The notes under the pieces were generated by a model. The model searched no databases. It saw nothing but the letters and a program-made list of their open reading frames with translations, and was not told the DNA's origin. A stretch of DNA of 64,000 nt from Acidobacteriota bacterium (GTDB lineage Bacteria > Acidobacteriota > Vicinamibacteria > Vicinamibacterales > UBA2999): the NCBI GenBank assembly GCA_947503365.1, contig CANNDT010000004.1, positions 14,375-78,374 on the forward strand, in the 5' to 3' direction. The translations under genes and the position numbers were made by a program. Every line of letters starts with the position of its first letter. The first letter of the stretch is position 1. Shown here piece after piece: positions 41,349 to 62,237 of the stretch.

Positions 41349-42748
41349 CCAATAACGAGGTGCATGTCGTAGTCCTGGCGGCTGGCCAGGGGACGCGGAT
41401 GAAGTCAGCGCTGCCAAAGGTGCTGCATCCAATCGCCGGCCGTTCTCTGATCGAGCACGTGCTTCGCACGGCCCGGACGGTGTCGCCGGCATCGATCACG
41501 CTCGTCGTGGGACACAAGGCGGAGATGGTGCGAAGCCACCTGGCCACCCAGCCCGACCTTCAGTTTGCGCTTCAGGATCCCCAGCTTGGAACGGCCCACG
41601 CCGTTCAGCAGGCCGAGCCGGCGCTGATGGGGCGCACGGGCACCCTGGTGCTGCTCTCCGGCGACGTTCCGCTGCTGACCCCATCCACGCTCACGAGGCT
41701 CCTGACCGCCCATTCTGCGGCCAGTGCGGCCGCGACCGTCATAACCGCGGTGGTCGAACGCCCTTACGGCTACGGACGCATCGTCCGGCACGACGGCCGG
41801 ATCGCACGCATCGTCGAAGAGCGCGACGCCACGCCGGACGAACGCAGGATCCACGAAATTAACAGCGGCATCTACGCCTTTGACCTGGCGACCTTATTCG
41901 AGGCGCTGCGCGCGGTCGCCTCGCAGAATGCCCAGGGCGAGTACTACCTCACCGATCTGGTGGGAATCTACCGGCGCCGCAAGCTGCCAGTCGAAACACT
42001 GGTCGTCGACAACCCTCAGGAGATCCGCGGCATCAACAGCCGGACGGAACTCGCGGAAGTGAGTAGGATCGTGAGACAGACCAAGAACGAGGAGTTGATG
42101 GCCGCCGGGGTCACCATTGTCGACCCGGCGACGACCTACATCGACCCGGACGTCGAGATCGGTGCGGACACGGTGATACACCCGGGTGTGGTGATCGAGG
42201 GACACACGCGCATCGGGGCCGCCTGCGAGATCCAGGCGCACGTCCGCATCTGCGATTCGGAAATCGCCGATCGGGTCACGATCAACAACTTCTGCCTCAT
42301 CGTTGGTGCGCGGGTTGCAGATGGGGTGTCGGTTGGCCCCTTCGCCCACCTTCGTCCGGAGACGAACGTGGGCGCCGGAGCGAAGATCGGCAATTTCGTG
42401 GAGTTGAAGAAGACGACGCTTGGTGCAGGATCCAAGGCCAGCCATCTGAGCTACCTCGGCGATGCGACCATCGGCGCCAACGTCAACATCGGCGCCGGCA
42501 CTATCACGTGCAACTACGACGGAGAAAAAAAGCACGAGACGGTGATTGAAGACGGCGTCTTCATCGGCAGCGACTCGCAGTTGATCGCCCCCGTGCGTGT
42601 GGGGAAGGGCGCCTACGTCGCCGCCGGCTCGTCGATCACCGGGGATGTCCCCGCCGGCTCACTGGGCATCGCCCGCGGGCGCCAGACGAACGTCGAGGGG
42701 TGGGTGGCTCGCAAGAAGAAAGCTCAGGGCTTAGGCCCCAAGCCCTGA
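41345..42748 (+). CDS. glmU: bifunctional UDP-N-acetylglucosamine diphosphorylase / glucosamine-1-phosphate N-acetyltransferase
   Basis: [20 protein letters not shown]; C-terminal left-handed beta-helix hexapeptide repeats. ATGA overlap with rsmI. Confidence 0.9.
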
Positions 42749-42749
42749 G
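42723..42749 (+). repeat. perfect 10-bp stem hairpin (CTCAGGGCTT-aggcccc-AAGCCCTGAG) covering the last codons and stop of glmU
   Basis: Read directly. The TGA stop (42746-42748) lies in the 3' arm, and the glmS ATG follows 11 nt later. Confidence 0.6.
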
Positions 42750-42759
42750 GCCTGTATTT

Positions 42760-44604
42760 ATGTGCGGAATCATCGGCTACATCGGCTCCAAGCCCGTCGT
42801 CCAAGTCCTGATCGAAGGGTTGCGACGAATGGAGTATCGCGGCTACGACTCCGCGGGCGTGGCGCTGGTCAGCCCCGAGGGGATCGCGGTGCGCCGATCG
42901 GCGGGGAAGCTCATCAACCTCGAGAACGCGGTCCGCGATGAGCCGGTCGATGGCCTGTACGGCATCGGCCACACGCGCTGGGCGACGCACGGCCGGCCGA
43001 CGGAGGAGAACGCCCACCCGCACCGCGACTGCACCGGCCGCATTGTCGTCGTGCACAACGGCATCATCGAGAACTACCTGGAACTGAAGAAAGAGCTTCA
43101 GCAACAGGGGCATGTGTTCAAGACCGAAACCGACACCGAAATCGTCGCGCATCTCGTCGAGCGGGAGACGAAGACGGACGGCCTCGAGAACGCCGTGCGC
43201 CGTGCCCTGACGCTGATGCGCGGGATGTTTGCGCTGGTACTGGTGTCGGTCGATGATCCGGAGAAGATCGTCGCCGTCCGCAATGGCCCGCCGATCGTCA
43301 TCGGTCTCGGCAAGGATGAATTCTTTGTCGCGTCCGACGTCCCCGCCATCCTGGCGCACACCCGCGACGTCGTCTTTCTCGGCGACGAGGAGATGGCGAT
43401 CATCACCCGCTCCGGCGTCGAATTCACCGACTACCAGGGGAAGGCGGTGTCCAAGACGACGCAGCGCGTGCTGTGGGACCCGATCGCCGCAGAGAAAGGG
43501 GGCCACAAGCACTTCATGCTCAAGGAGATCTATGAGCAGCCCAGTGCGGCCCGCGACACGATTCTCGGCCGCGTCTCGCTGGAACGTGGACAGATCTTTC
43601 TGCCCGACCTGAGCATCTCTCCGGACGCGTTCAGGGCGCTGCAGAAGGTCACCATCGTCGCGTGCGGCACGTCGTGGCACGCCGGTCTTGTCGGCAAGTA
43701 CCTGATCGAGGCGCTCGCCAGGGTGCCCGTCGAGGTCGACTACGGCTCCGAGTACCGCTACCGCAACCCGATCCTCGCGAAGAATGAACTGACGGTTGTC
43801 ATCACGCAGTCCGGCGAGACGGCCGACACGCTTGCGGCCCTTCGGGAAGCCAAGCGCAAGGGCGCCAGCAGCGTCGCCATCTGCAACGTCGTCGGCAGCA
43901 TGGCCACGCGGGAAGCCGACGGGACGGTCTATACCCATGCCGGCCCAGAGATCGGGGTCGCCTCGACCAAGGCCTTCACCTCGCAGCTGGTCGCACTGCA
44001 GTTGCTCGCGCTCTACATGGCCCAGGTGCGCGAGACGCTCACGAAGACCGAGATTCGCGGCCACATCGAAGAGCTCCTGCAGCTGCCGCAGGTCATCGAG
44101 CAGGCGATCAAAGCGTCGGCAGCGGTGGAGCGCGTCGCGGAGAAGTTCTACAACCGCACCGATTTTCTGTTCCTCGGCCGCGGCATCAACTATCCGATCG
44201 CGCTCGAGGGCGCGCTGAAGCTGAAAGAGATCTCCTATATCCACGCCGAGGGGTACCCGGCGGGCGAGATGAAGCACGGCCCGATCGCGCTGATCGACGA
44301 AAAGATGCCGGTCGTGGCGATTGCGCCCAACGATCATGTCTTCGAGAAGATGATCGGCAACGTGCAGGAAGCCAAGGCGCGCGGTGGGGCAGTGATCGCG
44401 ATTACGACGGAGGGCGATCCGCGCATGGCGGGGGTGCTCGACACCGCCAACGATGTGATCCTGCCGATGCCGGCGACGACGCCGCTCCTCACGCCCGTTG
44501 TGATGACGATCCCGTTGCAACTGCTCGCGTATCACATCGCCGTGCGGCGCGGCTGCGACGTCGATCAGCCGCGCAACCTCGCGAAGTCGGTGACCGTCGA
44601 GTAG
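42760..44604 (+). CDS. glmS: glutamine--fructose-6-phosphate aminotransferase
   Basis: MCGIIGYIG (Cys nucleophile after Met); two SIS domains; canonical C-terminus KSVTVE. Confidence 0.95.
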
Positions 44605-44714
44605 GCCGGCTGAAGCCGGCCTCCACGTGCGATCCTGCGTACGAAGATCCTGCGTACGTTGATCCTGCGTACGAAGATTCTGCGTACGTAGGGGCCGACT
44701 TCAGTCGGCCCTAC
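44601..44714. repeat. REP/REPIN-like doublet: two GTAG-headed hairpins flanking a 4 x 15-bp tandem array
   Basis: GTAG-GCCGGC-TGAA-GCCGGC (44601-44621); GATCCTGCGTACGAA x4 (44631-44690); GTAGGGGCCGAC-TTCA-GTCGGCCCTAC (44688-44714). Confidence 0.7.
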
Positions 44715-44723
44715 AATGGAGGC

Positions 44724-46991
44724 TTGGATCTCCTCTCCAGCCTCAACCCCGAACAACAGGAGGCGGTCCTTCACACGGAAGGACCGCTTCTGATTCTGGC
44801 CGGTGCCGGATCGGGCAAGACCCGGGTTATCGCACACCGCATCGCTCACCTGGTCAGCTCCGGTATCGCCGATCCGGGACGCGTCCTCGCTGTCACCTTC
44901 ACGAACAAGGCGGCGCAGGAGATGCGGACGCGTGTCGAGACGCTCCTGCAGGTCGACTGCCGGCAGATGTGGATCTCGACGTTTCACGCGCTGTGCGCGC
45001 GCCTCCTGCGCCGGGAAGCACCCCACATCGGCCTGTCGCGCGACTTTGTCATCTACGATTCGACCGATCAGCTCAGCGTGATGAAACAGGCGCTGAAGCA
45101 GATCGGCACCGACGACAGCAGCCTCGCGCCGCGCCTCGCGCTCTCGCGGATCAGCCATGCCAAGAACCGGATGGAAGGGCCCGAGACCTTCACCGCGAAC
45201 TCCTGGAACCCTCGCGAGGAACAGATCGGCAAGCTCTTCGCGATCTACGTGAAGGCCTTGAAGGAGGCCAACGCGCTCGACTTCGACGATCTCCTCCTCA
45301 AGACGGTGGAGCTGTTCGAGACGTCGGAACACGTCCGCGATCGCTATGCCGAGAAGTTCCAGTTCCTGATGGTCGATGAGTACCAGGACACCAACCGTCC
45401 GCAGTACCTGCTCGTGCAGCGCCTGGCCGCCCGGCACCGGAATCTGGCGGTCGTCGGCGACCCGGATCAGTCGATTTACAAGTGGCGCGGCGCCGATCTC
45501 AAGAACATCCTTGATTTCGAGCGCGATTTTCCAGAAGTCAAGGTCGTCAAGCTCGAACAGAATTACCGGTCGACCCAGGTGATCCTCGATGCCGCGTCCG
45601 GTGTCATTGCCCAGAACCGCAATCGCAAGGAGAAGCGCCTCTTCACCGAACGAGAGGGCGGCGCCAAGATCCTGCTGTACCGCGCCGCGGACGACCTCGA
45701 CGAGGCCGAGTACATCGCCCGGAGCGCACGAGCGGCGCTTCATGACGACGTCGAGAACACGGTCGCGATTCTGTACCGGACCAATGCCCAGTCGAGAACA
45801 CTGGAAGACGCCCTGCGCAGAGCCGGGACGGCGTACAAGATCATCGGCGGTGTCCGCTTCTACGAGCGCAAGGAGGTCAAGGACGCCCTCGCTTACCTGA
45901 AGCTGGTCCTGACTCCCCACGACAACGTTAGCCTGCGGCGGGTCATCAATGTGCCCGCGCGCGGCGTCGGGAAGGGCGTGATGGAGTCGCTCGAGGCGGT
46001 TGACCTGCCAACCGACGCTGACGTGCCGCCCCTCCTGTCAGGGCTTCAGCCGGCGGCCACCAACGACTCGCTTTGGGTGCGTCTCGTTCACGCCGTCGAC
46101 AAGCGGCTCCTCGCGCCGCGTGCCCTCACCTCGCTGACCACGTTCCGCGATCTGCTGGCGTCGCTCACGGCAATCGCCAGCCAGGAGTCGGTGTCTGTGG
46201 TCCTCGCCAAGGTCCTCGACCAGAGCGGTTATCTGCGGGATCTGCGCGAAGAACACAGCGAAGAAGCCGAGGGGCGCATCGAGAACCTGGCGGAGCTGGT
46301 GTCGGCAGCACGTGAGTACGAAACTCGGAGTCCGGAGCCGTCGCTCGGCGGCTTCGTCGATCAGCTCTCGCTCCTGTCGGACGCTGATGAGCAGTCGGGC
46401 ACCCAGAACGCCAGGGTGCTGATGATGACGTTGCATAGCGCCAAGGGGCTCGAGTTCCCGGTCGTCGTCATCAGCGGTCTCGAGGAGGGACTCTTCCCGC
46501 ACTCCCGCTCCGCGGACGATGAGGCGGAACTGGAGGAGGAGCGACGCCTCTGCTACGTCGGGATCACCCGCGCTGAACGCCGGCTGGTACTTACGTCCGC
46601 CGCCAGGCGCCGGGTGTTCGGCGAGTATCAGTCATCGGAGCCCTCGCGCTTCATCGAAGAGATCCCACCCGCGCTTATTGAAGAGGTTCCGTCGAACTTC
46701 GTCTCGCCGTACTCCTCGTCTTTTTCGCAGTACCGATCGTCGGGGTACGGGAAGGGCAGCGGCTACCGCGGCCGCACGCGCGAGGAGACGCCGTCGTATT
46801 CGTACGAGGATGAGGATCAGTCAGTACCCGGGGGCCTGAAGCCTGGACTGCGCGTCAAGCATGCGCAGTTCGGGATCGGCACGGTGCTGAGCGTCGAGCC
46901 TCTCGACGACGACACCAAGCTCGTCGTCCGGTTCAACACCGTCGGGCAGAAGACGCTCCGCGCGAAGTTCGCGAAGCTGGAAGTCGCGTAG
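44724..46991 (+). CDS. pcrA: ATP-dependent DNA helicase PcrA/UvrD
   Basis: LLILAGAGSGKTRVIAHR (Walker A), VDEYQDTN, and a C-terminal Tudor-like tail. TTG start. Confidence 0.9.
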   Translation: MDLLSSLNPEQQEAVLHTEGPLLILAGAGSGKTRVIAHRIAHLVSSGIADPGRVLAVTFTNKAAQEMRTRVETLLQVDCRQMWISTFHALCARLLRREAPHIGLSRDFVIYDSTDQLSVMKQALKQIGTDDSSLAPRLALSRISHAKNRMEGPETFTANSWNPREEQIGKLFAIYVKALKEANALDFDDLLLKTVELFETSEHVRDRYAEKFQFLMVDEYQDTNRPQYLLVQRLAARHRNLAVVGDPDQSIYKWRGADLKNILDFERDFPEVKVVKLEQNYRSTQVILDAASGVIAQNRNRKEKRLFTEREGGAKILLYRAADDLDEAEYIARSARAALHDDVENTVAILYRTNAQSRTLEDALRRAGTAYKIIGGVRFYERKEVKDALAYLKLVLTPHDNVSLRRVINVPARGVGKGVMESLEAVDLPTDADVPPLLSGLQPAATNDSLWVRLVHAVDKRLLAPRALTSLTTFRDLLASLTAIASQESVSVVLAKVLDQSGYLRDLREEHSEEAEGRIENLAELVSAAREYETRSPEPSLGGFVDQLSLLSDADEQSGTQNARVLMMTLHSAKGLEFPVVVISGLEEGLFPHSRSADDEAELEEERRLCYVGITRAERRLVLTSAARRRVFGEYQSSEPSRFIEEIPPALIEEVPSNFVSPYSSSFSQYRSSGYGKGSGYRGRTREETPSYSYEDEDQSVPGGLKPGLRVKHAQFGIGTVLSVEPLDDDTKLVVRFNTVGQKTLRAKFAKLEVA

Positions 46992-47084
46992 CCGCAACGC
47001 AAAGCTGAAGCTTTGCGCCACAGAAGCGTACGTAGGGCAACTCTTCAGTTCGTACGTGGGGCAAAGCTTCAGCTTTGCCTAGGG
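46988..47084. repeat. REP/REPIN-like doublet, variant stems (CGCAAAGC-TGAA-GCTTTGCG ... GGCAAAGC-TTCA-GCTTTGCC)
   Basis: It fills the whole gap between convergent pcrA and gyrA and shares the CGTACGTAG core and the TGAA/TTCA loops with the other copies. Confidence 0.6.
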
Positions 47085-49580
47085 TTGTGGCTCGGCGTCA
47101 GGCTCGCCGCCGTCGGCGACCACTTCGTCTTGTTCCGCCAGGCGGGCGATCGACACGGCTCGATCGTCACCCTCGGTGTCAATGATCGTGACGCCCTGCG
47201 TGGCGCGGCCGATGGTCCGTACGTCCCGTGCCGCCATCCGCAGCGTCTTGCCCTGCTGCGAAATCACCATCAGCTCGTCGTCATCGGTCACCTGGAGCAC
47301 GCCAATCACCTTGCCGTTGCGCTCCGACGTCTGGATGTTGATGATGCCGGTGCCGCCACGCGACTGGACGCGGTACTCCTCGAGCTCCGTGCGCTTGCCG
47401 TATCCCTTTTCGGTGACGGCGAGGATGGTGCCGCCGGGAATCAACACCTCCATCCCGACCACCGCGTCGCCTTCGCGGAGCATGATGCCGCGGACACCGC
47501 CTGCGGTGCGGCCCATCGAACGCACGTCCGACTCGGGGAACCGGATCGACATGCCGTCGCGAGTGCCGATAAAGATCTCATGGGTGCCGTCGGAGATCTG
47601 CGTCGCGATGACCGCGTCTCCCTCTTCGACGTCCATGGCGATGATGCCGCCGACCCTCGGGTTGCTGAAGGCCGTCAACTCCATCTTCTTTACTTCGCCG
47701 CGCGTCGTGCCCATGACGATGAACCTGTTCTCCTCGAACTCCTTCACCGCGATCATCGCCGCAATGCGTTCGCCGTCCTGCATCGAAACCAGATTGGCGA
47801 TCGCCTTGCCCCGGCCGTCCGGCCCGACGTCAGGAATCTCGTAGACCTTCAGCCAGTAGGCGCGGCCGCGGTCCGAGAAGATCATGATGTACGCGTGCGT
47901 CGAGGCGACGAACAGGTGACTGACGAAGTCCTCGTCGCGCGTGCGCATGCCGATGCGCCCCTTGCCACCGCGGCGCTGGCTGCGGTAGCTGGTGATCGCG
48001 GTCCGTTTGATGTACCCGGTGTTGCTGACCGTGATCGCCATGTCTTCTTCGACGATCAGATCCTCCCGGCGGAACTCGCCCTCGTCCGGCAGGATTTCGG
48101 TACGTCGATCGTCGCCGTACTTGTCGCGGATACGCGTCAGCTCATCGATGATGATCTGCATCAGCAGCCGGCTGCTCGACAGGATGGCCAGCAGCCGCTC
48201 GATCACCTTGAGCAGCTCCGCGAGCTCGTCGAGGATCTTCTGCCGCTCGAGGCCTGTGAGGCGCTGCAGCTGCATGTCGAGGATCGCCTGCGCCTGGATC
48301 TGGCTGAGGCCGAACTGCGCCATCAGGCCATCACGCGCTTCTCCCGGATTCTTCGCCGCCCGGATCAGGGTGATCACCGCGTCGATGTGATCGAGCGCGA
48401 TCTTGAGCCCCTCGAGGATGTGGCGGCGCGCCTCGGCCTTGCGGAGCTCGAACTCGGTGCGGCGGCGAACCACCTCGCGCCGGAACTCGACGAAGTTGTC
48501 GATCAGCTCGACCAGCGACAGCACCTTCGGTTGCCCACCGACGATGGCGAGCATGATGATGCCGAAGCTGGTCTGCAGCTGCGTGTGCTTGTAGAGGTTG
48601 TTGAGGATGACCTCGCCGGCCTCGCCGCGCTTCAGGTCGATGACGATCCGCATGCCGTCACGGTCGGACTCGTCACGAAGATCGGAGATGCCCTCGAGCG
48701 TCTTTTCCCTCACCAGGTCGGCGATGTGCTCGATCAGCCGCTTCTTGTTGACCTGGTATGGGATCGCATTGACGACGATCGACTGCCGGTCGGCTTTCTT
48801 GGAGACCTCGATCTCCGCCCGCGCCCGCATCAGCACTGAGCCGCGTCCGGTGAGCAGAGCCTGGCGGATGCCGTGGCTGCCGACGATGTAACCGCCGGTG
48901 GGGAAGTCAGGGCCCTTGACGAACTCCAGCAGCTGCCGCTGCTTCTCCGCAAGCGTCGGCGGCACCTCGCCGAAGCCGCTCTCGATCGTCCAGATGGCGG
49001 CGTCGATCACCTCGCGCATGTTGTGCGGCGGGATATTGGTCGCCATGCCGACAGCAATGCCGGTGGATCCGTTGACGAGCAGATTCGGGAACGGCGCCGG
49101 GAGAACCGAGGGCTCCTCAGTGGTCTCGTCGTAGTTGGGGACGAAGTCGACGGTCTCTTTGTCGAGATCCGCCATCATCTCGTCGGCGAGCGCCTTCAGG
49201 CGGGCCTCGGTGTAGCGCATCGCCGCCGGCGGGTCGCCGTCGATGGAGCCGAAATTTCCCTGTCCGTCGGTCAACAGATAGCGCAGGTTGAAGTCCTGGG
49301 CCATGCGGACGAGCGTGTCGTAGATCGACGCATCGCCGTGGGGATGGAAGTTTCCCATCACCTCGCCGACGATCTTCGCGCACTTGCGGTAGCCGCGCGT
49401 CGACGACAGCCCCATGTTCTTCATGCCGTACAGCACGCGCCTGTGCGCCGGCTTGAGGCCGTCGCGGACGTCGGGGAGCGCTCGCCCGATGATTACGCTC
49501 ATCGCGTAATCCATGTACGAGCGCTTCATCTCGTCTTCGATGTTGACCGGTATGCGGTTCTGCGGCGTCGATGTGGTCAT
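47079..49580 (-). CDS. gyrA: DNA gyrase subunit A
   Basis: 833 aa. [10 protein letters not shown] (active-site Tyr region); C-terminal beta-pinwheel repeats. Confidence 0.97.
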
Positions 49581-49587
49581 GAGTTAC

Positions 49588-49611
49588 GAGCCGGCTCAAG
49601 CCGGCCCCTAC
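49588..49611 (-). repeat. solo REP-like unit (minus strand GTAG-GGGCCGGC-TTGA-GCCGGCTC)
   Basis: It lies between the gyrB stop and the gyrA start. 26 of 28 positions are identical to the left half of the mnmE copy. Confidence 0.55.
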
Positions 49612-49622
49612 GTACCGTTGGT

Positions 49623-53388
<3,766 letters not shown>

Positions 53389-55052: not shown

Positions 55053-55117
55053 TTTTCCACAGTTTTTTCAACAGTTGTGGAAATCTTGGGCGAGGAACCG
55101 AATCTGACGCAGGATAA
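55053..55117. promoter_or_regulatory. DnaA-box-like sites upstream of dnaA (inverted pair plus one)
   Basis: TTTTCCACA (55053-55061) and TGTGGAAAT (55076-55084) face each other 14 nt apart. GCAGGATAA (55109-55117) is the reverse complement of TTATCCTGC. Confidence 0.5.
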
Positions 55118-55458: not shown

Positions 55459-55857
55459 ATGCAAGCCTTTAGGCTTGCCGAGCGGGTTCGGGTCAGGCGT
55501 GAGTTCGAGCGCGGCTATAACCAGGGCGCGCGGATTCACGGCCGGTTCATGACCCTCTTCGTGGTGCCCAATGGCGGCACCAGCCCACGCATGGGTGTCT
55601 CCGCGACCAGGAAACTCGGGTCGGCCGTCGAACGAAATCACGCGAAGCGCCTGGCGCGCGAGTTGTTCAGGCGCCGTAAGGTCACTGCCGGCGTCGATAT
55701 CATCATCGTGCCGCGCCGGGAAATGCTCGATGCACCCTTCTCCACCCTCGAAGCCGACTACCACGCCACCCTCGATCGCCGCGATCGCGTCCGTCCGGGC
55801 AGCGGGCCACGCCCGCCCAGCGGTAAGCCTCGTACTGGCGGCCGTTCGCGCGTATAA
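55459..55857 (+). CDS. rnpA: ribonuclease P protein component
   Basis: 132 aa, basic. FRLAERVRVRREFE...ATRKLGSAVERNHAKRLARE is typical of RnpA and follows rpmH. Confidence 0.85.
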   Translation: MQAFRLAERVRVRREFERGYNQGARIHGRFMTLFVVPNGGTSPRMGVSATRKLGSAVERNHAKRLARELFRRRKVTAGVDIIIVPRREMLDAPFSTLEADYHATLDRRDRVRPGSGPRPPSGKPRTGGRSRV

Positions 55858-56039: not shown

Positions 56040-57785
56040 ATGGAACGCAGGACCCTCATCGCGGTTTTTCTGTCTTTCCTGGTCTTGTACGCCTACCAGG
56101 CTTTTTTCGCGCCACCACCGCCCCCTCCGGCCGCGACTGCGACAACAGCGCCGGCCGCGGCGCCGACGACAGCAACCGCTGTGGCTGCGCCCGCGGCTGC
56201 GGTGCCCTTGGCGGCTGCGGCTGCCCCTGCCGCCGTTGAGCCGGCGGCTGTCACCGGCGACACAACCGAGCGCGAGATTGTCGTCGACACCGCATCGGTC
56301 CAGGTGGTGCTTTCCAACCGCGGCGCGCGGGTGATCCACTGGCGGCTGAAGGCGCACCTCGATACGGCCGGGCAGCCGGTCGACCTGGTGCCGTCGGACG
56401 TGCCGGCGAATCAGCCCTCGCCCTTCGCCTTGCGCGTGGACGACGAGGAGTTGACGCGCCGGATCGGCGCGGCGCTCTATCGGGTCAGCGGCGACACCGG
56501 CGGGCGAGTTGACGCGACCACGAATGCGGCGACGGTCGTGTTCGAGTTCGAGGACGCGGCGGGCGTGCGCGTGCGGAAGGAGTTCCGCTTCGACCCAGCC
56601 AACTACATCGTGGCATTCACGGCGTCGGTCGTAAACGGGGGCACGACGCTGAATCCCACCGTGCTCTGGGGCCCGGGCCTTGGCGACGCCGGTGCATCGG
56701 CTGGCGGAGGCAGTTTCTTCACCGGTAACGCCGTCCAGCCGCCGGAAGCCATCTACGAGGTTGGCACCGACGTCTCGCGCGTCGCGGCCGGCGACTTTGC
56801 GGAACAGCCGCAGCAGAACGGCAAGTTCCGTTTCATCGGCATCGACGATCACTATTTCCTCGCGGCGGCGCTGAACCCGGGGCAGACTCGCGCGGAGTTC
56901 CGATCCCTGACGCTGCCAGGCCCCGGTGATACCCAGCGCCTGTACGTCACGCAGGAGCTGCGTTTCGCACAGCCGCCGCAGAACGTCCGCTTCTTTGTCG
57001 GCCCGAAGCAATTCGATCTGCTCCAGTCCATCGACACCGAGCTGGTCAAGTCGATCAACTTCGGCATCTTCGCGTGGCTGGTGCTGCCGCTGCTCAGCGC
57101 CCTGAAGTGGATCTACAGCTACGTCGGCAACTACGGCTGGTCGATCATCTGGCTGACCATTCTCATCAACCTCGTCATGTTCCCGCTGCGCCACAAGACG
57201 GTGGTGTCGATGCGGAAGATGCAGGCACTGCAGCCGCAGATGAAGGCGATCCAGGATCGCTACAAAGATCTAAAGGTCACCGACCCGGCCAAGCAGAAGA
57301 TGAACACGGAGGTCATGAACCTCTATCGCGAGAAAGGCGTGAACCCGGCGAGCGGCTGCGTGCCGATGCTGCTCACCATGCCGGTGCTGTTTGCGTTCTA
57401 CTCGCTGTTGTCACAGGCGATCGAACTGCGAGGCGCGCCGTTTACGGGCTGGATTCACGACCTCTCGCAGTTCGACCCCTACTACGTGACCCCGCTCCTG
57501 ATGGGCGCCTCGATGTTCTGGCAGCAGAAGATCACGCCGACGACCGCCGATCCGGCCCAGGCCAAAGTGATGATGATCATGCCGGTGGTCTTCACCTTCA
57601 TGTTCATCAAGTTCCCGAGCGGCCTGGCCATCTACTATTTCGTGAGCAACCTCTGGACGATCGGCCAGCAGTACTTCACGAACTGGCTGATTGGTCCGGC
57701 CGTGGCGCCGGCGCCGCGGCCGCCGGCAGAGCGCAAACTGAAGAACGCCGGCGCCGGCAAGACGAGCGCCGCCGACAAGACGTAA
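56040..57785 (+). CDS. yidC: membrane protein insertase YidC
   Basis: Start at ATG 56040 (MERRTLIAVFLSFLVLYAY). Large periplasmic domain, then NYGWSIIWLTILINLVMFPL, MQALQPQMKAIQDRYK and GCVPMLLTMPVLFAFY. Confidence 0.9.
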   Translation: MERRTLIAVFLSFLVLYAYQAFFAPPPPPPAATATTAPAAAPTTATAVAAPAAAVPLAAAAAPAAVEPAAVTGDTTEREIVVDTASVQVVLSNRGARVIHWRLKAHLDTAGQPVDLVPSDVPANQPSPFALRVDDEELTRRIGAALYRVSGDTGGRVDATTNAATVVFEFEDAAGVRVRKEFRFDPANYIVAFTASVVNGGTTLNPTVLWGPGLGDAGASAGGGSFFTGNAVQPPEAIYEVGTDVSRVAAGDFAEQPQQNGKFRFIGIDDHYFLAAALNPGQTRAEFRSLTLPGPGDTQRLYVTQELRFAQPPQNVRFFVGPKQFDLLQSIDTELVKSINFGIFAWLVLPLLSALKWIYSYVGNYGWSIIWLTILINLVMFPLRHKTVVSMRKMQALQPQMKAIQDRYKDLKVTDPAKQKMNTEVMNLYREKGVNPASGCVPMLLTMPVLFAFYSLLSQAIELRGAPFTGWIHDLSQFDPYYVTPLLMGASMFWQQKITPTTADPAQAKVMMIMPVVFTFMFIKFPSGLAIYYFVSNLWTIGQQYFTNWLIGPAVAPAPRPPAERKLKNAGAGKTSAADKT

Positions 57786-57794
57786 CGGAGAAGC

Positions 57795-58250
57795 GTGGAC
57801 GCAACCCTCACTCACCAGATCACGACGTTCGTGCAGAATGTGGCGAGCGCCATGGGCGCCAGCCTGACGACGACGGTCGAGGAAACACCCGACGGCACGC
57901 GCATTAACCTCGAAGGGGAGGATGGCGGCATCCTTGTGCGGCGCGACGGCGAGGGCCTGCAGGCGCTTCAACACGTCGTCGCCACCGCCTTTCGTCGCCA
58001 GCTGGGCGACGACACGCGCATCGTCATCGACTGCAACGGATTCCGGCGTGACAAGGACGCCGAGCTGAAGCAGATGGCCCAGTACAACGCCGGGATCGCA
58101 AAGCGCGACGGCATCCCGCAGGAAATGGGGCCGCTCAATCCTTACGAACGGCGCATTGTGCACCTGGCGATCGCGGAGGATCCGGCGGTCAGCTCACAGA
58201 GCATCGGCGATGCGTTCATGAAGACGGTCATCATCTCTTCGAAGCGGTAA
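57795..58250 (+). CDS. jag: Jag/KhpB-like RNA-binding protein (KH + R3H)
   Basis: R3H segment LNPYERRIVHLAIAEDPAVSSQSIGD. Conserved position after yidC. Confidence 0.8.
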   Translation: MDATLTHQITTFVQNVASAMGASLTTTVEETPDGTRINLEGEDGGILVRRDGEGLQALQHVVATAFRRQLGDDTRIVIDCNGFRRDKDAELKQMAQYNAGIAKRDGIPQEMGPLNPYERRIVHLAIAEDPAVSSQSIGDAFMKTVIISSKR

Positions 58251-58260
58251 TCTTTGGTGA

Positions 58261-59643
58261 GTGGCGTTTGCAACTGACGACTCCATCGTTGCGATAGCCA
58301 CACCATCCGGCCGCGGCGGGATCGGCGTGGTGCGGATCAGCGGTCCCAACGCGCTCACCATCGCCCGGCAGATCCTCGATCACAAGAGCTCGCTGACGCC
58401 GCGCTATGCGACCGTGACTCGCGTGACGAGTGGGACGGCGCAGGACGAGGTGGTCGCCACCTACTTCAAATCTCCGCACTCCTACACGGGAGAACACGTG
58501 GTCGAAATCAGCGCGCACGGTAGCCCCGTCGTGCTGCGCGGGATCGTCCGCGCCGCAATGGATGCGGGCGCCCGGCTCGCCGAGCCCGGAGAGTTCACGC
58601 TGCGCGCGTTCCTGAACGGCAAACGCGATCTGGTGCAGGCCGAGGCGGTCGGCGATCTGATTGCCGCGGCGACGCCGCTCCAGGCGAGGATCGCATTCGA
58701 CCAGCTTGAAGGCACGCTGACAAAGCAGATTCGGGAGATCGATGGCCCGCTGTTCGAGCTGATCGCGAGGCTCGAAGCGTCGCTTGATTTTGCCGACGAG
58801 GGCTATCACTTCGTGGCGCCTCAAGAGGCCGTTGCGACGTTGCGCACCGCGATCGCTCGGCTCGATGACCTGCTGGCGGACGCGGGCCGTGGCCGCATGA
58901 TCCGGGACGGCGCCACCCTGGTGATAGCCGGGCGAGTAAACGTAGGCAAGTCAAGCATTTTCAATAAGTTAGCAGGTTCAGAGCGAGCCATAGTCACGGC
59001 GATTCCTGGCACCACGCGTGACCTCGTTACTGAGGCGATCGACATCGAGGGCCTCGCAGTGTCGGTGGTCGACACCGCCGGATGGAGAGACACCCGGGAT
59101 GTCGTCGAGCGCGAAGGCGTGGCGCGCGGCCAGCAGGCGCGGGCCGTCGCCGGCCTGGTCCTCATCGTGCTCGATCGCAGCGAACCGCTCACCGAGGACG
59201 ATCGTCGACTGCTCGAGCAGACGGCGGGACAGCGGCGCATTGTCGTTCTCAACAAGTGCGATCTGGAGCCAGCCCCGGGCCGGCTCAAGCCGGCCCCCAC
59301 GTACGTAGAGGCCGACTTCAGTCGGCCTGAGGCGATCGAAGTCTCCGCTGTCACCGGCGCCGGGATCGATGAGCTCCGTCGCGCCATTGCATCGGCGTTG
59401 ACCGGATCCGAGGTCCTGCGTGACACCGCGGCGATTTCCAACGTGCGGCACATCAAGCTGCTCGAGGATGCGCGTGAACACCTGACGCGCGCGCACAGCG
59501 CGGCGGAAGCCGGCGACACGCCAGAGGAGTTTCTCCTGACCGATCTCCAGGCAGCGCGTACGAGCTTCGACGAAGTGGTCGGCGTGCGTACGAGCGAGGA
59601 TGTGCTGTCGCACATCTTCGCGACCTTCTGTATCGGAAAGTAG
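58261..59643 (+). CDS. mnmE: tRNA modification GTPase MnmE
   Basis: G1 GRVNVGKSSIFNKL, G3 DTAGWRD, G4 LNKCD, C-terminal CIGK. GTG start. Confidence 0.95.
   Translation: MAFATDDSIVAIATPSGRGGIGVVRISGPNALTIARQILDHKSSLTPRYATVTRVTSGTAQDEVVATYFKSPHSYTGEHVVEISAHGSPVVLRGIVRAAMDAGARLAEPGEFTLRAFLNGKRDLVQAEAVGDLIAAATPLQARIAFDQLEGTLTKQIREIDGPLFELIARLEASLDFADEGYHFVAPQEAVATLRTAIARLDDLLADAGRGRMIRDGATLVIAGRVNVGKSSIFNKLAGSERAIVTAIPGTTRDLVTEAIDIEGLAVSVVDTAGWRDTRDVVEREGVARGQQARAVAGLVLIVLDRSEPLTEDDRRLLEQTAGQRRIVVLNKCDLEPAPGRLKPAPTYVEADFSRPEAIEVSAVTGAGIDELRRAIASALTGSEVLRDTAAISNVRHIKLLEDAREHLTRAHSAAEAGDTPEEFLLTDLQAARTSFDEVVGVRTSEDVLSHIFATFCIGK
59277..59328. repeat. REP/REPIN-like doublet inside the mnmE ORF
   Basis: GGGCCGGC-TCAA-GCCGGCCC CCACGTACGTAG AGGCCGAC-TTCA-GTCGGCCT. 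27 of 28 positions match 44683-44710 and 26 of 28 match 49588-49615. Confidence 0.65.
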
Positions 59644-59655
59644 CGGGAAGCAGCG

Positions 59656-61521
59656 TTGACCTTCGACGTCATCATCATCGGCGCCGGTCACGCGGGAGTT
59701 GAAGCCGCGTACGCCGCGGCTCGTCTCGGTTGCAGCGTCGGTCTGTGCACGCTCTCGCGCGACACCGTCGCGCACATGCCGTGCAACCCGGCCGTCGGCG
59801 GCACGGCAAAGGGCCATCTGGTTCGGGAGATCGATGCCCTCGGTGGTCTCATGGGGCGGGCCATCGATGCCACGGGACTGCAGTTCAAGCTCCTCAATCG
59901 ATCCCGCGGACCGGCGGTGTGGTCTCCCCGCGCGCAGGCCGACAAGCGACGCTACTCCGACTGGGTCAATGCCACGCTGAGCGATGAACCGAACATCACC
60001 TGGATTCTCGGCAAGGCAGGGCGGATTCTCACGAGCCACGGTCGCGTCAACGGGCTCGCGATGGAAGACGGAGAGCGCCACCACTGTTCGTCCCTGGTGG
60101 TGACGACGGGGACGTTCCTGAATGGACTCATCCACATCGGCCGCGAGCAACGGCCCGCGGGACGTCACGGCGAGGCGCCGTCACGCGAACTCGCCGAATC
60201 GATCAGATCGCTGGGCTTCGCCGGCGGACGACTGAAGACCGGCACGCCTCCAAGGCTCGATCGAAAGAGCATCGATTTTGATGCGCATGTCAGCGACGGA
60301 CTGTGGGCCGAAGAGCGTGGTGACGCTGCGCCGGTGCCGTTCTCCTTCGGGACAACCACGCCGCTGACAAACACGATCTGCTGCTGGTTGCTTCACACCA
60401 ATGAACGCGTGCGCGACCTGGTGCGAAGCCGGATCGACCAGAGTCCTCTGTACAACGGGCAGATTCACGGCATCGGCCCCAGGTACTGCCCGTCCCTCGA
60501 AGACAAAATCATGCGATTCCCCGATCGGGAGCGGCATCAGGTCTACCTTGAGCCGGAAGGAGTCGACGCTGACGAGATCTACGTCAACGGGTTTTCAATG
60601 TCGCTGCCGTGGGATGTGCAAGAGGAGCTCGTTCACGCGCTGCCCGGCCTCGAGGATGCGGTGATGCTGCGGCCTGGGTACGCCGTGGAGTACGACTTCA
60701 TCCAGCCGACGGAGCTCCGATCGACCCTCGAAACGCATCGGGTCGAGGGGTTGTTCTTTGCCGGGCAGATCAACGGCACATCCGGCTACGAGGAGGCAGC
60801 GGCCCAGGGAATCATGGCCGGGATCAACGCCGCGGCCCGCGTGCGCGGGGACCGACCGTCGACGCTGGGGAGAGACGAAGCCTATATCGGGATTCTGATC
60901 GACGACCTTGTCACCAAGGGCTGCCTTGAGCCGTACCGGATGTTTACGTCCCGTGCCGAGCACCGGCTGCTGCTGCGCATCGACAACGCCGATTTGCGAC
61001 TCACTCCACGAGGACGGGAGCTCGGCCTGGTCGGCGATGAGCGATGGGCGACCTTTGAGGAGCGCCGCGGTCGCTACGAGTGGAATCTCTCGATGCTGGA
61101 GCGGACGACCGTGAGGGCCGGAAGCGGCGAACGGATGCCAGCCGCGCGGTTCCTGAGGCAACCGGGAGTTCGACTGGAGCCGCTCGCCGAGGCCCAGGGG
61201 CTACCGTTGGCGCTCTCAACCCACGCGAGAGAGCTGGATCTCGCGAGCGTTGAGACGTCCCTCAAGTACGAGGGGTATTTGAAGCAGGAATCCGCGCGCG
61301 CCGATCGCCTCAGGCGCGAAGAGCGCAAGAGAATCCCGGAGGCGTTTCCGTTTTCAGGAGTGCCTGGCCTGTCACGTGAGGCTGTCGAGCGGCTCTCGCA
61401 GGTAAGACCGGAGACCCTTGGACAGGCGTCCAGAATTCCCGGAATGACCCCGGCGGCGGTCGCCACCCTCAGCGTATTTCTCTCGCGTTTTTCGCCTTCC
61501 GCGATACCGTCGAGCTCGTGA
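59656..61521 (+). CDS. mnmG: tRNA uridine-5-carboxymethylaminomethyl synthesis enzyme MnmG (GidA)
   Basis: 621 aa. [16 protein letters not shown] (FAD), [33 protein letters not shown] start. Confidence 0.95.
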
Positions 61522-62162
61522 CCAGCGGCGAGTTCCAGGAACGGCTGGCCCTTCGGGCGCACGCGGCCGGGGCCGCGCTGACCGAGCCGTTGGGAGAGCG
61601 CCTGGAGGTCTACTTCCGGCTGCTGGAGAGCTGGAACGAGAAGATCAACCTCACCGCGCTCCCACTCGCCGACCCCACAGCCGAAACCCTGGATCGCCTG
61701 CTGATCGAGCCGCTCGTCGCGGCGCACCATGTCTCATCGTCGGCGCGGAGCCTCGTTGACATCGGCAGCGGCGGTGGTTCTCCAGCACTCCCGCTCGTGC
61801 TGGCAGCCCCACAGTTGCGCCTGCTGATGGTCGAATCCCGCACCCGCAAATCGGTATTCCTCCGCGAGGCGGTGCGTGCCCTGGAACTCGACGGGGCGGA
61901 GGTTGCCACTGCGCGCTTCGAGCAACTTCTCACCGACCCGGCCCATCAGGAGACGTACGACCTGCTCAGCATCCGCGCGGTCAGAGTCGAAGCCGATGTC
62001 CTTTCCCGGCTCCAGGAATTCGTCAGACCTGGCGGCCAATTGTTTCTCTTCCGCGGGGACGCCCTCGACGCGCAAATTGCCGTCCAGAGCCCTCTGGTTC
62101 GGCGAGCCATGCACCAGCTGACGGCGACCTCAGCCAGCCACCTCGTCATCCTCTCGAAGTAG
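61518..62162 (+). CDS. rsmG: 16S rRNA (guanine527-N7)-methyltransferase RsmG (GidB)
   Basis: [10 protein letters not shown] and [13 protein letters not shown] (SAM motif). 4-nt overlap with mnmG. Confidence 0.9.
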
Positions 62163-62182
62163 CGCGGCGCCCGGGAGCAGGA

Positions 62183-62198
62183 CGTTCCACGTGAAACG
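62183..62198. promoter_or_regulatory. parS site (CGTTCCACGTGAAACG)
   Basis: 14 of 16 positions fit the consensus TGTTNCACGTGAAACA; both mismatches are the outermost bases. Confidence 0.7.
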
Positions 62199-62221: not shown

Positions 62222-62237
62222 TGTTCCACGTGAAACA
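62222..62237. promoter_or_regulatory. parS site (TGTTCCACGTGAAACA)
   Basis: Exact fit to TGTTNCACGTGAAACA, 39 nt from the first site. Confidence 0.85.

Follow-up and report, generated by a model that had tools for sequence, protein, structure and literature searches.

A REP dimer carried in frame within the G domain of MnmE in uncultured Vicinamibacterales

Introduction

Intragenic, in-frame copies of repetitive extragenic palindromic (REP) sequences of the GTAG-REP class, often dimers coding for ~20-30 amino acids (aa), are known from Opitutus, Thauera, Stenotrophomonas and others, with DnaE2 and tRNA-related enzymes among the host proteins (Di Nocera, De Gregorio and Rocco 2013, BMC Genomics 14:522; PMC3733652). 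Here we describe an element of this type, 52 nucleotides (nt) long, at positions 59277-59328 of a 64,000-nt stretch from an Acidobacteriota bacterium of the order Vicinamibacterales (GenBank assembly GCA_947503365.1, contig CANNDT010000004.1, positions 14,375 to 78,374, forward strand), this whole stretch being referred to below as the window. It is carried in frame in mnmE, the gene for a tRNA modification GTPase, between the segments coding for the G4 and G5 motifs of the G domain. The original prediction, made from the letters of the window, placed this nested REP-like palindrome exactly and was right that it contains no stop. Its premise that REPs are extragenic by definition, and an in-frame copy hence unusual, was overstated: in-frame intragenic GTAG-REP dimers are documented (PMC3733652), and the same family recurs in the genes for MetH, a DnaE2-like polymerase, GlgE and a kinase. 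That REPs occur in genes was already known; what is new here is mnmE as a host, the deep comparative series and the strain-level length polymorphism.

The GTAG-REPs resemble the family in the window in being short GC-rich hairpins with a GTAG tag, often arranged as inverted dimers, mostly intergenic with an in-frame minority, and in having a REP-associated tyrosine transposase (RAYT) gene flanked by the repeats (PMC3733652). They differ in that the survey covers neither an Acidobacteriota or Vicinamibacterales host nor mnmE, its supplement having no entry for mnmE, trmE or GTPase; a literature search for REPs in Vicinamibacterales found nothing either. The mnmE case goes beyond that survey in that the same intragenic loop is occupied across dozens of species, with covariation in the stems and in-frame indels at the strain level. 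A related precedent is the REPIN-RAYT system (Bertels and Rainey 2011, PMC3116915; PMC8049555), which shares with the present family the pairing of two inverted REPs, a RAYT present once and bordered by REPs, and long-lasting populations close to a master sequence; later work on it points to long-term vertical persistence (PMC8049555). Classical REPINs, however, are extragenic and form one long hairpin, whereas the mnmE doublet forms two local hairpins with a highly variable spacer and is predicted to be translated.

The Rickettsia palindromic elements (RPEs) provide a further parallel, being selfish palindromes that lie in frame in housekeeping genes, are translated, take fold-compatible positions, recur at orthologous sites in relatives and decay (Ogata et al. 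2000, 2002, summarised in PMC10969869, PMC3733652). They are ~100-150 bp long, with a conserved peptide of their own, reside in reduced intracellular genomes and have no established link to RAYTs (PMC10969869, PMC3733652); in contrast, the mnmE element is a 52-nt REP dimer of a RAYT-associated family from free-living soil Acidobacteriota, and its residues follow the covariation of the stems. By analogy, it appears to work like an RPE without being a member of that class.

Similarly, the bacterial interspersed mosaic elements (BIMEs) and REP clusters of enterobacteria have counterparts at window positions 44603-44711 and on a related contig, L131 (L numbers designate related loci and contigs, P numbers proteins), where REPs of alternating orientation with variable spacers form arrays; the enterobacterial sequences are unrelated to the window family. 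The BIMEs of Escherichia coli are extragenic, have defined spacer motifs and bind integration host factor or gyrase. A search with E. coli REPs was uninformative for the mnmE element.

An in-frame REP dimer in mnmE

Two REP units with GTAG/GTGG tags, each a 20-nt hairpin with a perfect 8-bp stem and a 4-nt loop, make up the element as a head-to-head dimer. The left hairpin, GGGCCGGC-TCAA-GCCGGCCC (59277-59296, plus strand), is read as GRLKPA and the right one, AGGCCGAC-TTCA-GTCGGCCT (59309-59328, plus strand), as (E)ADFSRP. They stand 12 nt apart, joined by the central spacer CCACGTACGTAG (59297-59308, plus strand), in which the tags of both units face inward around the palindrome ACGTACGT: CCAC, the reverse complement of the variant tag GTGG, belongs to the left unit, and GTAG to the right. 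Every unit of the family follows the same layout: GT(A/G)G and 1 nt precede a GC-rich stem of 7-8 bp, whose two strands enclose a T-N-N-A loop. Although the 52-mer is self-complementary at 40 of 52 positions, its minimum free energy structure as single-stranded DNA consists of two separate hairpins rather than one long one (-20.3 kcal/mol, z = -3.8).

Its kinship with intergenic DNA is close: the right half (59300-59327) matches 44683-44710 at 27 of 28 positions and the left half (59277-59304) matches 49588-49615 at 26 of 28, both exactly as originally stated. Each hairpin pattern, with up to 3 mismatches allowed, has 6 matches in the window (a count that includes both-strand matches to palindromes) against 0.20 and 0.03 expected from dinucleotide shuffles. 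The shuffle statistics serve as background because a reversed-sequence control of the REP scanner, with 51 matches against 59 real ones, owed most of its matches to a single conserved coding site that recurs in orthologous loci, and was dropped.

The host open reading frame (ORF; 58261-59643, plus strand; 460 aa) is identified as mnmE by full-length matches to the solved structures 1xzp, 9hip, 3geh and 3gee, the best being Thermotoga maritima TrmE (1xzp, E = 9e-90), and by the Pfam domains TrmE_N, MMR_HSR1 (the G domain) and MnmE_helical on all of the best 120 of 8000 scored database relatives. Its product has the complete MnmE/TrmE architecture, with the motifs GRVNVGKS, DTAG, NKCD and SAV and a C-terminal FCIGK. 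Between NKCD (G4; 59251-59262, plus strand) and SAV (G5, within SAVTGAG; 59344-59352, plus strand) the element is read as PGRLKPAPTYVEADFSRPE, such that MnmE could be translated through it at full length, with LKPAPTYVEADFSR as the predicted tryptic peptide crossing the element. The 52-mer is open in the frame used by mnmE; its frame +0 runs into the TAG of the GTAG tag. Because the element is palindromic, one frame of the reverse strand gives nearly the same peptide, GRLKSASTYVGAGLSRP. The in-frame reading first put at about 17 codons stands as such, but 52 nt cannot be divided evenly into codons, which leaves the exact length of the insert undefined.

The G4-G5 loop of the window MnmE comprises 27 aa, compared with 23 in T. 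maritima and 19 in E. coli MnmE. Because the solved MnmE structures hold 19-23 residues at this place, a loop of 27 is within reach, and the alignments of the window protein to them need gaps of only 4-8 residues. An AlphaFold2 model of the protein, of moderate quality (mean predicted local distance difference test (pLDDT) score 67), shows residues 332-357 as a low-pLDDT coil between strand 326-331 (beta5, which ends in G4) and strand 358-360 (beta6, which leads to G5). By comparison with Ras-like G domains, this segment presumably faces away from the switch regions that mediate dimerisation of the MnmE G domain. The REP-bearing segment is predicted to lie in a short, variable, permissive surface loop.

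With the mnmE dimer included, the 64-kb window contains 7 units, which occupy 4 sites and have loops and tags in common; 5 of the units are intergenic. One pair (44603-44711; hairpins at 44603-44622 and 44692-44711) lies in the glmS-pcrA spacer, with four tandem 15-nt repeats (GATCCTGCGTACGWW; 44631-44689) between its members, each of which repeats the tag-proximal CGTACG. A single unit, GAGCCGGC-TCAA-GCCGGCCC plus CTAC (49588-49607), occupies the gyrB-gyrA spacer. A second pair (46998-47079), with the variant stem GCAAAGC, the same loop and GTGG/GTAG flanks, is found between the convergent pcrA and gyrA genes and folds as a single long REPIN-like hairpin (-35.8 kcal/mol, z = -7.8). This variant pair had been left out of the original list of copies, the listed members of which are real and, as claimed, intergenic, their neighbors being the Pfam-confirmed glmS (42700-44604), PcrA/UvrD helicase (44724-46991), gyrA (47079-49580, minus strand) and gyrB (49623-52214, minus strand) genes.

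A RAYT-associated REP family of the Vicinamibacterales

On related contigs the family presents itself as a bona fide REP-RAYT system, RAYT genes on two of them, L131 and L214, being flanked by its REPs. On L131, a 170-aa ORF with 28% identity to E. coli RayT and the Pfam domain Y1_Tnp (PF01797; E = 1.2e-9) is bordered by ~10 tandem CGTAGYGTCCGGCTTCAGCCGGAC units on one side, in an array with a period of 31 nt, and by at least 4 inverted units on the other. It has 1123 relatives at E <= 1e-10, several of which bear the annotation RayT or REP-associated tyrosine transposase; a Vicinamibacterales metagenome-assembled genome is the source of one. The 333-kb contig L214 carries a second RAYT with 3 upstream and 4 downstream REPs, whose stems, GTCCGCC and GTCCGGC, are the very pair of variants from which the mnmE dimers of L082 and L022 are built. 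tBLASTn searches found no RAYT in the 64-kb window or in the mnmE loci; the only ones came from L131 and L214. In both RAYT neighborhoods, or REPtrons (L131 1236-2250; L214 9890-10620), the last codons of the RAYT and its stop codon lie inside the first downstream REP.

Judging from these associations, the repeats appear to belong to those that a RAYT (an IS200/IS605-like Y1 transposase) mobilises, and to be widespread in Vicinamibacterales (Acidobacteriota). A scan of metagenome contigs from JGI with the tag-stem-loop pattern CGTRGNGKCCGRCTTCAGYCGGMC matched at least 120 stretches; 120 of these stretches contained no mnmE locus, as this exact pattern did not sample the mnmE copies.

The sampled copies, ~135 in number, are mainly extragenic and dispersed, with ~5-8% lying in Pfam-confirmed ORFs. 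Six are placed inside ORFs with Pfam domains on both sides, these being a MetH activation domain, a DnaE2-like Pol III alpha subunit, GlgE, a Ser/Thr kinase domain, DUF6351 and NDH2; 3-4 further copies probably lie in ORFs for a DEAD helicase, an OB-fold protein, Wzy_C and a twin-arginine (TAT)-signal region. All stop-free frames are used (GRLKPA.., GPAEAGHY, RSVRLQPD and V.SGFSRT), and one copy is read in the third frame as SWRPTSVGL, which the GTGG tag enables. Such frame usage would be expected if insertions were random and only those that leave the ORF intact survived. It also carries a warning for annotation: GRLKPAPTY, GAGFSRP and other peptides encoded by REPs turn up repeatedly in unrelated proteins of these genomes and are mistakable for motifs.

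REP-like tagged hairpins with other stems are also present in the orthologous atpG-atpD spacer of six species (L012, L015, L018, L030, L039 and L050; ~18.8-19.0 kb), which may be a conserved intra-operon hairpin site. Because of these hairpins, persistence at a site with turnover of the stems is best seen as a property of the family rather than a peculiarity of mnmE.

The loop among MnmE orthologues

The nearest relatives of the window MnmE come from uncultured Vicinamibacterales, and among the orthologues the G4-G5 loop ranges from 10 to 55 aa. REP-derived peptides (GRLKPAPT.. and ..GAGFSRP) occur in this loop in 49 of the 121 nearest orthologues, with both halves present in 20, only the left half in 19 and only the right half in 10; of 79 GTDB species representatives, only 5 have any such peptide. 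On a rough, loop-masked neighbor-joining tree, the distant clades have loops of 12-21 aa of the LPxAW......V type with no trace of a REP. The segment is an insertion relative to such distant relatives (27 against 12-21 aa), as the original prediction anticipated, and it is not confined to this genome. Repeat-free relatives do not keep the same segment with synonymous variation.

The reading frame is nearly uniform among the REP-bearing orthologues (GRLKPAP.. / ..GAGFSRP). At the DNA level, eleven of them share an order of left hairpin, CYAC(GTACG), variable middle, (CGTAC)GTRG and right hairpin, with stems of GGCCGGC, GGCCGAC, GTCCGCC, GTCCGGC or TTCCGGC; the spacer between the units varies widely in length, and the junctions differ, with the REP beginning 1-7 aa after NKxD. 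Within the REP-bearing clade there are also REP-free members with loops of ancestral type, for example LPEAWRMNGRICV, and some subclades keep LPxAW/F. The flanks of L082, L085 and L002 were found to contain no extra REP copies. One apparent left REP in another frame (GPAKAGHYV in P0040/L084; contig_EHDLDABF_35472) was discarded: dnaA on that contig is split into three ORFs and other genes are fragmented, which points to a probable indel or sequencing error.

In L047 (11042-11191) and L056 (1623-1742), the same loop contains an in-frame duplication of a distinct palindromic repeat of ~42 nt, with the core CCACGCACAGTCCGCGTGG, which gives rise to GLHPTTHSPRGGDP repeats; among 211 loci, no copies of it were found beyond these two. 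Because this repeat is unrelated to the REPs, the G4-G5 loop has been struck independently by another element. Elsewhere in mnmE, a REP unit with one stem mismatch (GTGGGGGCCGGCTTCAGTCGGCC) is present at 583-606 of L090, in the N-terminal domain of the same gene (ORF 371-1855, coding for the 494-aa P0068), which suggests a second permissive site.

Comparisons of close relatives reveal how the loop changes. The locus L001 is 98.98% identical to window positions 57017-62183, and its sole indel in 5.2 kb is one of 24 nt within the central spacer, equivalent to 8 codons (GSGPAPMY), in which the insertion duplicates the 3' arm plus tag. Between L212 and L213, whose mnmE genes share ~91-95% nucleotide identity, a stretch of 78 nt is present in one and missing, in frame, from the other. 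A direct repeat of 8 nt, AGCCGGCT, bounds it on both sides, serving the left hairpin as its 5' arm and the right hairpin as its 3' arm. One copy of AGCCGGCT remains in the short allele and leaves the peptide footprint SRL|E.VEV, so the difference can be read as a probable arm-to-arm deletion; P0035, P0045, P0089 and P0098, which are nested among REP-bearing sequences, show this footprint too. L002, L089 and L087 have partial tandem duplications, whose periods are 18, 21 and 27 nt. All indels and duplications in the loop are multiples of three, a restriction to which the intergenic arrays, such as that of L131 with its 31-nt period, are not subject. Taken with the intact dimers, single units and decayed copies, these partial tandem duplications and the arm-bounded deletion would constitute a natural time series of selfish palindromes entering, persisting in and leaving coding DNA, which lends itself to testing if conversion or re-insertion renews the REP copies that occupy a fixed site.

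Conservation of the hairpins

We aligned 16 mnmE-resident units, tag first, taking recognisable copies only. Their stem cells pair in 94.6% of cases, and 3 of the 7 stem pairs change on both sides, one between GC and UA in 8 of the 16 units and another among GC, CG and AU. The covariation score is 0.326, whereas shuffles give 0.089 and none of 500 attains the observed value; all slid controls collapse. In the tag region, positions G3, T4 and G6 are invariant across the 16 units. Mean column identity of the REP units is 84%, versus 41-62% at the 4-fold sites of the same genes, which are saturated at a third-position GC content (GC3) of ~0.8. The covarying changes alter the encoded residues, giving GRLKPA, VRLKAD, VRLKPD and GRLKSA. 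Hence, on the evidence of this alignment, the conserved feature of the loop insert is DNA base-pairing and not the peptide. The window element is as similar to paralogous copies as to the orthologous copy of L005, a comparison that does not separate conversion from inheritance.

Origin and maintenance of the insert

We consider a selfish REP dimer, tolerated in a permissive loop of MnmE, to be the best explanation of these observations and probably the correct one. The surface loop that separates G4 from G5, short and variable as it is, would have received a REP copy in one ancestor, or a few, of a Vicinamibacterales subclade, and the copy would have survived with the frame kept, no stop introduced and the extra residues tolerated, to be translated as part of a functional and presumably unaffected MnmE. 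The arms and tags of the REPs would then drive in-frame slippage, partial tandem duplication and arm-to-arm deletion, rendering the loop hypervariable, with selection on MnmE passing only the in-frame, stop-free states. The resident copy may, in addition, be renewed from the REP population of the genome through re-insertion at, or conversion of, the existing REP, and re-insertion or gene conversion is the most likely reason why resident units remain near the consensus. If so, the RAYT-type REPs, active and abundant in the Vicinamibacterales, a dominant uncultured soil lineage, can build and reshape a loop of a conserved housekeeping enzyme. As to the earlier wording that the repeat is tolerated, or domesticated, the first half agrees with the intact ORF and G motifs and the predicted lack of structure in the loop; the second is unsupported, with a 10-55-aa loop that is polymorphic between strains and with base-pairing conserved instead of the peptide.

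Several points weigh against this explanation. The alignment of units was ascertained on recognisable copies, and decayed ones exist (L003, L007 and L088). Near-consensus hairpins persist at the orthologous site despite saturated synonymous sites, which is also expected under purifying selection for a function. Both the transposition of the family and the expression of full-length MnmE are predictions from sequence; the AlphaFold2 model, at a mean pLDDT of 67, is only moderate; and the RAYTs come from related contigs, the copy counts from the 64-kb window and from metagenome contigs.

The number of insertions bears on the history of the tolerated dimer rather than on its nature. A single ancient insertion at the base of the Vicinamibacterales subclade, inherited vertically and maintained in situ, is plausible, though we lean towards several insertions or hot-spot re-seeding. 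The clustering of REP-positive orthologues in the clade nearest the window, with outgroups devoid of REPs, would follow from one event, as would the frame common to nearly all of them and the retention of footprints such as SRL|EGVEV in short forms. Against it stand the differing junctions (1 to 7 aa after NKxD), the retention of LPxAW/F in some subclades and the LPEAWRMNGRICV-type REP-free loops inside the clade, along with the repeat of L047 and L056, which shows that the loop is hit independently; the tree behind the argument is itself rough. The heterogeneity of the junctions suggests more than one insertion event, on a neighbor-joining tree too rough to decide the matter.

It is conceivable, but improbable, that the mnmE loop has been selected as a long-lived "safe harbour" in which the REP-RAYT system resides, or that it houses a hairpin cassette that functions as DNA or mRNA. 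This would amount to an intragenic REPIN that purifying selection, or re-seeding directed to the site, has kept intact throughout a clade of order rank, the first to be maintained inside coding sequence over deep time, and would turn the loop of a housekeeping GTPase into a hypervariable, repeat-encoded module.

A functional or domesticated hairpin pair or peptide, kept by selection in its own right, seems quite unlikely to us. Such an insert might act as an mRNA structure tuning mnmE/mnmG expression or co-translational folding, as a DNA site for gyrase or a nucleoid protein near the origin, or as a loop modulating the GTPase cycle of MnmE. Near-perfect hairpins with compensatory changes do persist at one site in many species with saturated 4-fold sites, the site lies ~4 kb from the dnaA/DnaA-box region, and REP-like hairpins have likewise persisted in the orthologous atpG-atpD spacer, as would suit a possible role of the family in RNA. 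However, the element is missing from many close relatives and from all outgroups, and was deleted between relatives with ~91-95% identical mnmE genes with no other change. The loop varies from 10 to 55 aa and differs even between strains, decayed copies are tolerated (in L003, L007 and L088), and the peptide is not conserved as such. Moreover, the same elements are present in unrelated proteins in any open frame, and no Rfam family matches, the scan having found only three tRNAs and nothing at the element.

An ordinary fast-evolving loop, with palindromes arising by chance or from GC-rich codon bias, would accord with the general variability of the G4-G5 loop in MnmE and with the many short palindromes of GC-rich coding DNA, but is effectively refuted by the 27/28 and 26/28 matches to intergenic copies, the 6 observed matches against 0.03-0.2 expected, the tags and loops shared with RAYT-flanking REPs and the covarying stems. 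Repeats can mislead assemblers, and L084 has obvious frameshift errors, yet an assembly or sequencing artefact or a chimeric join at the repeat has a negligible chance of accounting for the element, the same architecture recurring in independent assemblies from ENA, NCBI, JGI and Logan, always in frame and with colinear mnmE flanks, and L001 being 98.98% identical across 5.2 kb.

Other features of the locus

An inverted pair of DnaA-box-like 8-mers (TTTCAACAGTTGTGGAAA) is present at 55066-55083 and probably indicates the dnaA-rpmH/oriC region; most related loci conserve it as TTTCCACAGNTGTGGAAA, ~3.2 kb upstream of mnmE. Near rpmH/rnpA, a perfect hairpin, GCAAGCCTTTAGGCTTGC, is identical between the window (55461-55478) and the 69%-identical relative L003 (7121-7138). 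Downstream of rsmG/gidB and before parA, a site matching the parS consensus, TGTTCCACGTGAAACA, lies at 62222-62237, and relatives have GTGTTCCACGTGGAACAC at the same place.

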